Below, one piece after another: positions 15,701 through 17,188 of a stretch of DNA of 64,000 nucleotides (position 1 is its first letter; each line of letters opens with the position of its first letter). The notes beneath the pieces are model-generated. The model searched no databases. It saw only the letters and a program-made list of their open reading frames with translations, and was not told where the DNA came from. Position numbers and translations under genes: made by a program. Source of the stretch: an uncultured Candidatus Saccharibacteria bacterium (GTDB lineage: Bacteria > Patescibacteriota > Saccharimonadia > Saccharimonadales > Saccharimonadaceae). The stretch spans positions 5,291 through 69,290 of the forward strand of contig CALUDH010000006.1 in assembly GCA_943914775.1 (NCBI GenBank). Reading direction: 5' to 3'.

Positions 15701-17188
15701 GTGAGCAGGCACGATAAAACAACAAAAATACAGAAGTTCAAATTGCCATTAAAAACGTTGGCTGCTGCGTTCGGTGTCTTGTCGGTACTTGTTGCGCCAA
15801 CACTCTATTCGCCAAAAGCCGCAGCTGACGCTATCAACAACACGGACTTCGTATTTACTATCGATACCAGAAAGCCGGGGTCGCCAAACACTCAGTTTGT
15901 TATTCCGACAAGCGGTTCAGGGTACAATTATACTGTTGACTGCAATAATGACGGTGTAAATGAGGTGTCTGGGCAGACTACTTCTTATACTTGTAATTAC
16001 GCTACGCCGGGGATCTACACTATACGCATTGGCGGCGCCTTTCCATGGTTTATCGTGAATGGTAGGGGTGATAGGCTAAAACTGCTTTCGATTGATCAAT
16101 GGGGTACGAACAAGTGGAAGAATATGCGTTCTGCCTTTGCTGGCGCGGAGAATATGGATGTCAAGGCAACTGATACGCCAGATTTAAGCCAAGCCACTGA
16201 CTTATCATAGATGTTTGTTGGAAATAAATCACTGAAAGGCGAGTCTGCTAATTGGAATTGGAATACGTCAACTATTACCAAAATGTCGGGCGTCTTTCAA
16301 AATGCAAACCAATTTAACCAAAATGTAGGTTCTTGGGATGTTTCAAAGGTGACCGATACTGCTGGTATGTTTAATGGCGCCAGCGCTTTTAATAACGGAG
16401 GTAGCGATTCTATTACGAATTGGGATACGTCGAGTTTTGTAATCGCAAACGACATGTTCCGAAAAGCAACTTCGTTCAACCAGCCGATTGGCTCGTGGAA
16501 TATGAAGAAAGTGCAGTTTCTTGTTCGTTTTTTAAGTGATGCGACTTCATTCAATCAATCGCTAGCTGCTTGGCGATTGGATTCGTTGGTTATTTTGCCG
16601 GGAAAACCGTTGTCTGGTGCGGCGGCCGCGCTTGATCATACAGCGATTTCGCGCCAGAATTACGATGCTATGCTAATTGCTTGGAATGCGCAAAATCTAA
16701 AATCGCCAATGTCGCTTGGAGCGGCCGGTTTGAAATTTTGTGCAGCCGCTTCGGCGCGGGCTAACATCTTGAAGCCTGTTGTCGACGGCGGACACGGCTG
16801 GGTAATCACTAGCGATGGCAGGCTGTGTACAAAACATAAAGTAACATTTGATTCGCAATCCGGTTCTGCCGTTCCAAATAAGATGGTAGGCTATACGTAT
16901 CCTTTCAGACCGCCGGTCGCCCCGACCCGCTCTGGCTACACTTTTGCCGGCTGGTACACAGATACTGCTTTTACGACTGCTTGGGACTTTGCGAACGGTA
17001 CGATGCCAGACAATGACTTGACCTTGTATGCAAAATGGACGAAGAACCCTGCGTCTGCCTCTACGCTGTCTCCGGAGTTGCCAAAATCGCCTGGTGTCAG
17101 ACTGGCTGAAACAGGCTCAAATACAGTGTTGTTTGTCTTGGCGGCGTCTATCTTTGTAGCTTCTGGTATTGTTTTGTTCAAAAAGTAA
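15701..17188 (+). pseudogene. Paralog of the DUF285/Flg_new/LAETG surface protein, interrupted by an in-frame TAG
   Basis: ORFs 15701..16210 and 16211..17188 are in the same frame and are separated only by TAG at 16208-16210. The N-terminal half is about 75% identical to the 13031 gene. The protein ends with LAETG, a TM helix and KK. It starts with GTG, 8 nt downstream of a TATACT box. Confidence 0.7.

Follow-up and report, generated by a model that had tools for sequence, protein, structure and literature searches.

Paralog 2 of a pair of surface-protein genes in an oral Saccharibacteria lineage is, with a probability of about 0.9, a young, clone-specific nonsense pseudogene that was recently inactivated. 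The gene lies in a 64-kb stretch of DNA, which was analysed as a whole and is called the window below. A single TAG splits one reading frame into two ORFs, 15701..16210 (169 aa, GTG start) and 16211..17188 (325 aa), and positions 16199-16219 read ...GAC TTA TCA TAG ATG TTT GTT.... A preliminary description of this DNA had reported the TAG at 16208-16210 directly before an ATG at 16211-16213 in one frame, and both the coordinates and the ORFs check out. As judged from the sequence comparisons below, our verdict is that the interruption probably reflects ordinary decay of a dispensable surface-protein family. The features of the gene are the following.

15701..17188, plus strand: paralog 2, a DUF285/PARCEL (BspA-type) repeat surface protein of 495 codons, interrupted at codon 170
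15664..15692, plus strand: promoter-like site (TTGCTA-17 nt-TATACT) of paralog 2; 8 nt separate the end of its -10 box from the GTG (leaderless-type spacing)
15701..15832, plus strand: signal-peptide region (residues 1-44), with a basic N-terminus, the hydrophobic core LAAAFGVLSVLV and then AAADA
16208..16210, plus strand: TAG nonsense codon (W170*), a TGG with G>A at 16209
16211..16213, plus strand: ATG, the ancestral Met171 of the conserved repeat motif DLS-W-M-F and not a new start
16817..17044, plus strand: Listeria-Bacteroides (InlB-type) B-repeat domain (residues 373-448, PF09479/TIGR02543)
16997..16999, plus strand: GGT (Gly433), a second clone-private substitution, located beyond the stop in the B-repeat domain, where it replaces an almost invariant Asp
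17102..17188, plus strand: C-terminal sorting-signal-like tail, with LAETG (17102-17116), a hydrophobic helix, KK and the stop

Both reconstructed paralogs are members of the DUF285 family by Pfam PF03382, each scoring 120 bits against a cut-off of 25. Their repeats are recognisable with the 26-residue PARCEL repeat model TIGR02167 and are individually sub-threshold (17-22 bits; cut-off 30). An NCBIfam scan grouped the repeats of the paralogs with PARCEL repeat proteins, the best match being the Mbov_0838 PARCEL lipoprotein; membership of that subfamily (NF045896) was considered and rejected, as the scores reach 76-81 bits against a curated cut-off of 500.

The AF2 model of an intact orthologue (pLDDT 80) consists of an N-terminal beta domain (strands 50-113), a continuous solenoid (about 128-370), a B-repeat (378-448) and a C-terminal helix (475-494), with residues 1-44 disordered. 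The B-repeat is recognised by PF09479 at 71-74 bits (cut-off 27; paralog 2 at 71) and by TIGR02543 at 51 bits (cut-off 20.95), and it matches InlB chains among PDB sequences at E = 1e-16. When the model was searched against the PDB with Foldseek, the B-repeat alone was matched (TM 0.92, rmsd 1.4 A to 2y5p, the InlB B-repeat), and no solved structural match was found for the DUF285 solenoid.

The true N-terminus of paralog 2 has a maximum Kyte-Doolittle 12-mer score of 2.58, and a signal-peptide cleavage site, judged without a dedicated predictor, is presumably located in this region. At the other end, paralog 2 closes with LAETG-SNTVLFVLAASIFVASGIVLF-KK and paralog 1 with LADTG...KLIKRS, the L-A-x-T-G pentapeptide being invariant across the family alignment and helix 475-494 being a transmembrane helix in the model of the intact orthologue. 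The pentapeptide, hydrophobic stretch and basic tail of a sortase-anchored (LPXTG-type) protein are all present, and the paralog 2 protein is probably sortase-anchored. An LPXTG-anchor family model was not among the NCBIfam matches of the paralogs, and no sortase-like TLxTC motif in a plausible context was found among the ORFs of the 64-kb window.

The course of events starts in a single clone of oral Saccharibacteria, where a G>A change at 16209 turned the Trp170 codon, inside the solenoid domain, from TGG to TAG. Translation from the GTG start would then end at codon 170, which in the AF2 model lies within the continuous solenoid and cuts it after about one and a half turns. The truncated product would comprise the signal peptide, the small beta domain at the N-terminus and roughly one and a half turns of the repeat. 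Without the remaining solenoid, the B-repeat or the LAETG anchor, it would have lost its function as a cell-surface protein. Full-length protein is thus presumably lacking and its function lost, and dispensability of the family would be why the allele persists.

That the interrupted codon was ancestrally a tryptophan codon follows from the orthologues. TGG ATG occupies codons 170-171 in 27/27 orthologues from assembly and species-representative genome loci. TGG is likewise present in all 25 metagenome contigs recovered by an exact-pattern scan that permitted A or G at the critical base; as the pattern fixed the ATG, these 25 contigs are no test of ATG conservation. TGG thus stands at the site in 52/52 orthologous alleles (27 + 25) and TAG in the window, so that one G>A transition, at 16209, accounts for the lesion, and a codon-by-codon comparison with one intact contig (L001) displays the same TGG-to-TAG change. 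In a large protein collection, the intact 495-aa orthologues (P0001-P0007; 81-98% identical) all have Trp at the stop position. A Tyr codon had been guessed as the ancestor from the repeat consensus and was discarded, since the orthologues have Trp TGG. The adjacency of TAG and ATG is accordingly a coincidence of the ancestral Trp-Met dipeptide.

Compared with 17 orthologous alleles, the window gene carries two private substitutions in 1,488 nt, W170* and D433G, and zero private synonymous changes. Because there are only two private changes, the inactivation is therefore taken to be recent. Asp433 is at least 90% conserved in the family alignment (A2), and D433G, as a single event, would fit relaxed constraint. 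Elsewhere the gene is still pristine, and decay of its sequence is thus no proof as yet that function has been lost.

The TAG allele recurs outside the window. Five other metagenome contigs, L009-L013, have the same split into 169 and 325 aa, and their identity to the window, over up to 9 kb, is 99.94-100%; the intact-allele contigs L001-L008 are about 95% identical to it and represent a different lineage. The five contigs belong to assemblies with separate accessions, for which at least two assemblers were used (NODE_ and k119_ names), at coverages of 2.5-4x, and they are maybe not all independent samples, as two pairs resemble re-assemblies of one data set (L012 and L013 are both 1,645 bp). 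The presence of TAG in five further contigs therefore marks a clonal allele and not a read error. A sequencing or assembly error, with G as the true base at 16209 and an intact gene, would require a difference of only one base, and the matching metagenome contigs have low coverage (2.5-4x). It is nonetheless very improbable, because the same TAG was obtained in five contigs of separately accessioned assemblies by at least two assemblers. The preliminary description had named an error at 16208 as one finding that would overturn its reading; with the allele in five other assemblies, such an error is unlikely.

TAG is a common terminator in this DNA. The stop codon is TAA in 24, TAG in 14 and TGA in 6 of the 44 long non-overlapping ORFs of the window, and the earlier observation that TAG does not serve as a sense codon in other parts of the window holds. 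The other in-frame TAGs flanked by long open stretches, at 10775-10777 and 12189-12191, are both true gene boundaries. Positions 10775-10780 form a natural TAG/ATG junction between a G5-domain gene and ksgA. ARAGORN detected tRNA-Glu and tRNA-Gln(UUG) alone in the window, with no tRNA bearing a CUA anticodon anywhere in the 64 kb. These observations offer little room for recoding of the TAG by a suppressor tRNA, pyrrolysine or near-cognate decoding, through which full-length protein would still be made. The downstream frame is open and almost unchanged, and the stop is followed by A, although other contexts give stronger termination. However, 14 of the 44 long ORFs end in TAG, a tRNA-CUA is absent from the window, no other window gene was found to contain an internal in-frame TAG, and a lesion this young, with its two private changes, accounts for the intact downstream frame. 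We consider recoding highly unlikely, and within the 64-kb window the hallmarks of UAG reassignment or programmed read-through appear to be missing. Stop-codon read-through or reassignment had been listed among the earlier options, and TAG as a common sense codon among the findings that would refute the earlier reading; neither is borne out, as TAG is a common terminator here and other genes in the 64-kb window lack internal in-frame TAGs.

Initiation signals at the ATG at 16211 are absent. The 20 nt upstream give an anti-Shine-Dalgarno duplex of +0.1 kcal/mol, which corresponds to no pairing, compared with -7.7 to -9.3 kcal/mol for the window genes with clear Shine-Dalgarno sequences. The latter are mostly operon-internal, as in the genes at 4777, 10778, 11586 and 58550 (-7.7 to -9.1 kcal/mol). 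Many genes in the window have no Shine-Dalgarno sequence. At many first genes here, a TATAAT box stops 5-10 nt short of the start codon, an arrangement that is the signature of leaderless mRNAs and that precedes 17 of the 44 window genes as against 4.4% of all ATGs. Both paralogs conform to it, each having a TTGCTA-17-TATAAT/TATACT promoter-like site that ends 8 nt before the start. An internal promoter for a leaderless mRNA at 16211 was considered and rejected, because the sole -10-like hexamer, TATCAT, ends 2 nt before the ATG, whereas the spacing at real starts is 5-10 nt.

The 325-aa fragment also lacks a signal peptide. Its N-terminus is not hydrophobic, with a maximum Kyte-Doolittle 12-mer score of 0.3 versus 2.58 for the true N-terminus, and a reinitiation product would therefore be cytoplasmic, with its LAETG signal unusable. 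Termination-reinitiation, in which ribosomes stop at the TAG and restart at the ATG at 16211 to make a separate, useful 325-aa C-terminal protein, has the abutting stop and start (TAGATG) in its favour, along with the same junction at the real gene boundary 10775-10780 and the missing Shine-Dalgarno sequences of many genes here. Restarts after nonsense codons are reportedly known from the classical lacI and T4 rIIB work. Against this, the ATG is ancestral, following TGG in 27/27 orthologues, and was thus not selected as a start; position 16211 has no Shine-Dalgarno sequence, unlike several operon-internal genes; the fragment without a signal peptide would undergo neither export nor LAETG sorting; and in the AF2 model it would begin in mid-solenoid. 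Such a coupled product is very unlikely. The TAGATG junction is absent from all relatives compared and lacks a Shine-Dalgarno sequence, and so does not have the features of a programmed termination-reinitiation pair. Expression of the C-terminal LAXTG part from the internal ATG, an option in the preliminary description, consequently loses its footing, as Met171 is ancestral, no initiation signals are present and the fragment has no signal peptide. The ATG after the stop is simply the next ancestral codon of paralog 2, and any reinitiation would yield a cytoplasmic fragment; low-level read-through or reinitiation is possible.

Paralog 1 lies upstream of paralog 2 and carries a lesion of its own. 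A third gene lies between the two.

13031..14547, plus strand: paralog 1, of the same family, 503 codons, frameshifted, with about 57% aa identity to paralog 2
12994..13022, plus strand: promoter-like site (TTGCTA-17 nt-TATAAT) of paralog 1, with 8 nt between its end and the ATG
13702..13711, plus strand: 5-bp tandem duplication TAACG/TAACG, the frameshift of paralog 1 at about codon 226
14608..15642, minus strand: 344-aa gene between the paralogs, intact in the window and part of the same three-gene island

The TAACG duplication shifts paralog 1 from frame 0 to frame +2; intact orthologues of paralog 1 include P0026 and P0030. The flank of the TAG had earlier been aligned to the intact region of paralog 1, and this alignment is correct. 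Over 8,973 bases, the same-clone contig L010 differs from the window solely by a 5-bp gap at the duplication, such that L010 has an intact 503-aa paralog 1 and a paralog 2 still interrupted by TAG. The duplication is present in another contig of the clone, L011. As it is absent from L010, the two lesions are therefore of different age, the duplication being the newer, and the latter appears to be still polymorphic within the clone. A search for a third paralog with tblastn, using P0001 as the query, returned the two loci alone. A 494-aa ORF at 44047-45531 is unrelated to the family.

The preliminary description had stated that both paralogs are disrupted, by different lesions, near the same N-terminal position. 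The disruptions by different lesions stand, but the shared position does not. The lesions, at codon 170 and about codon 226, are 57 codons apart, and two uniformly placed lesions in a 495-codon gene would fall this close by chance with P of about 0.22. The co-location had been called unexpected for random loss; at this P value it is not, and the lesions also differ in age.

Alternatively, both lesions could be reversible on/off switches of surface proteins. Both paralogs are off in the window while paralog 1 is on in the same-clone contig L010, and the tandem duplication in paralog 1 could in principle revert by slippage. Yet the TAG arose by substitution of one base, outside any repeat, and is present in every recovered contig of the clone. 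The duplication consists of two copies of a 5-bp unit, which is far from the long tracts of contingency loci, and the lesions of relatives are of many unrelated types and positions. A hypermutable simple-sequence tract, the mark of a contingency locus, was found neither at the TAG site nor at the TAACG duplication. Phase variation is accordingly highly improbable, and the on/off variation suggested earlier finds no contingency-type repeat tract at either lesion.

Decay of the family is seen beyond this clone. The organism falls within a dense cluster of human oral Saccharibacteria (TM7), with TM7 oral taxon 353 as the source of the closest named protein. Its own genome is absent from the species representatives, among which the best match reaches about 95% identity. 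In relatives, paralog 2 is interrupted by TCG>TAG at codon 130 in a strain-level contig (L097), and by TCA>TAA at codon 190 (L034) and a 4-bp deletion (L036) in two species-representative genomes; at least six species-representative genomes retain only remnants of it or lack it. Paralog 1 is interrupted in strain-level contigs by GAG>TAG at codon 271 (L006) and by a stop at codon 240 (L104), and by 1-bp indels in three species representatives (L015, L018 and L022). Some genomes have a single chimeric gene, as in L039, where a paralog-1-like gene carries a paralog-2-type C-terminus. The 344-aa gene between the paralogs, which has no NCBIfam match and whose weak match to Abhydrolase_6 (E = 0.009) is the sole other one, is broken in 6/34 relatives. 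Breakage is almost never seen in the housekeeping genes nearby, among them those for MetRS, TatD and the G5 protein. Relaxed selection on the family, one of the explanations offered at the outset, is the one favoured by these independent nonsense, frameshift and deletion lesions in both paralogs of relatives.

Counted per gene, point lesions affect 7/94 family genes versus 4/252 neighbours (Fisher P = 0.011); per kilobase, the 2.8-fold excess is not significant (P = 0.08), and the second collection alone shows no clear excess (2/33 versus 2/about 64). False broken calls were discarded, some due to N scaffold gaps (paralog 1 in L004, TatD in L006 and hyp344 in L007) and others to natural C-terminal differences (RrnaAD, and paralog 1 in L039). 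Clustering of the lesions along the gene was considered and rejected, since 11 lesions pooled from the window and relatives have relative positions of 0.09-0.97, and a post hoc Kolmogorov-Smirnov comparison with a uniform distribution gives a non-significant P = 0.07. Taken together, these patterns suggest that the three-gene island is dispensable and is repeatedly decayed or deleted, with modest statistical support for a special rate.

A more speculative reading is that the island, in which the two paralogs flank the 344-aa gene, may be a selected hot spot at which surface proteins are repeatedly and independently switched off or deleted in oral Saccharibacteria. We regard this as unlikely. 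If it were true, the pressure could be a change in host-bacterium attachment or an escape from phage or immune recognition, and the TAG allele would be one adaptive loss-of-function allele among many, analogous to inlA premature stops. Selected rather than neutral loss is possible on these data and gains no strong support from them.

For annotation, the pseudogene reading means that 15701-17188 is to be recorded as one pseudogene (W170*) and not as two genes, and 13031-14547 as one frameshifted pseudogene. A noticeable share of related oral Saccharibacteria have lost these DUF285/PARCEL genes and the one between them or carry broken copies. This pattern of loss marks the island as dispensable, strain-variable surface equipment with candidate functions in host attachment or recognition. 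The case carries little weight for new biology and is of modest interest for epibiont ecology.

A literature search returned nothing specific on Saccharibacteria DUF285 proteins or sortase substrates, and the comparisons below are with systems from other contexts. The first is translational coupling at an abutting stop and start, where the TAGATG geometry here is identical to that of the window junction at 10775-10780. In contrast to a coupled pair, however, the geometry at 16208-16213 appears to have arisen by accident from TGG ATG, is unconserved in relatives and comes without a Shine-Dalgarno sequence.

The repeat domain itself belongs to the same family (PF03382, 120 bits) as the DUF285/PARCEL/drp/'BspA' proteins of Mycoplasma agalactiae and M. 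bovis. In M. agalactiae, the DUF285/PARCEL genes ('bspA', drp) number 4 full and 4 truncated copies in GrTh01, and strains PG2 and 5632 have 9 and 12 full copies, respectively (PMC8751087). The Mycoplasma proteins are lipoproteins, whereas the proteins described here have a Sec-type signal peptide and a LAXTG tail, with two copies per locus. Their scores are also far under the cut-off for Mbov_0838 (76 versus 500 bits), indicating a different subfamily.

The closest analogue is internalin A of Listeria monocytogenes, which likewise has independent truncating alleles in particular lineages. Many independent natural nonsense and frameshift alleles of inlA have been described per lineage, with truncated products that lack the anchor (PMC12427964, PMC5131979, PMC11555985). 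InlA and paralog 2 are alike in being LRR-type proteins of the cell surface that combine a B-repeat region of the Listeria-Bacteroides type with a sortase signal at the C-terminus, and the B-repeat here matches that of InlB in sequence and fold. Unlike in InlA, the repeat domain is DUF285/PARCEL rather than internalin LRR, and the sorting motif is LAETG rather than LPXTG. The stop is also early (codon 170 of 495), such that most of the repeat domain is lost as well, and the organism is an epibiotic member of the Saccharibacteria. The interruption of paralog 2 is a further instance of this ordinary process, here in a different phylum.

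The 15701-17188 gene, paralog 2, encodes a DUF285/PARCEL surface protein. Its sequence in the window clone shares 98.2% identity with that of the separate lineage of metagenome contigs that carry the intact allele, whereas the compared neighbour genes are mostly 92-96.5% identical between the same two lineages. One exception among the neighbours is hyp344, which lies between the two paralogs and reaches 99.5% identity in some contigs. This pattern of identity around paralog 2 looks like a mosaic, possibly derived from recent between-lineage recombination of the gene. Downstream of its TAG stop, paralog 2 carries a second change private to the clone, D433G (GAT>GGT, 16997-16999), which alters a nearly invariant aspartate of the Listeria-Bacteroides (InlB-type) B-repeat. 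This substitution fits relaxed constraint, but it is one event only.

Some related loci hold a single gene of this family. In L039, the locus was scored with one paralog-1-like gene (6001-7503), which is 85% identical to paralog 1 and ends in a paralog-2-type C-terminus, IFVASGIVLFKK. Such a combination suggests recombination between paralogs 1 and 2, an event that appears to have removed the intervening DNA. L037 and L038 likewise each show just one gene, paralog-1-like (87-88% identical).

In the window, the gene between the paralogs is as follows:

14608-15642, minus strand: hyp344, 344 aa, TTG start

An NCBIfam scan found no family for hyp344, and its only domain signal is a weak Abhydrolase_6 match (E = 0.009). 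The gene is intact in the window. Among 34 related loci, 6 have it broken by stops or frameshifts, which is a larger broken fraction than that of either paralog.

Judged by sequence, leaderless-type starts are common among the window genes. TATAAT (at most one mismatch) ends 5-10 nt upstream of the start codon in 17 of 44 genes, compared with 4.4% of all ATGs, and examples of such starts are the following:

12994-13030
15664-15700
2420-2441
20443-20464
23298-23319

A strong Shine-Dalgarno sequence is present in only ~14% of window genes, and these genes are mostly operon-internal.

Two further features lie between 10775 and 12191:

11586-12191: predicted membrane protein, 201 aa, weak holin-family match (E = 0.003)
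10775-10780: natural TAG/ATG junction with zero spacing, where a G5-domain gene (9707-10777) is followed by a ksgA-type methyltransferase gene (10778-11602)

Of 39 related species-level loci, 32 gave no match to the membrane protein at 70% identity or more, and in the related locus L082 a Cu-oxidase_4 gene directly follows the methyltransferase gene. The membrane protein gene may have been inserted in some strains and not in others. Upstream of the junction lies a G-rich stretch that resembles a Shine-Dalgarno sequence (-7.7 kcal/mol), as would be expected for translational coupling.
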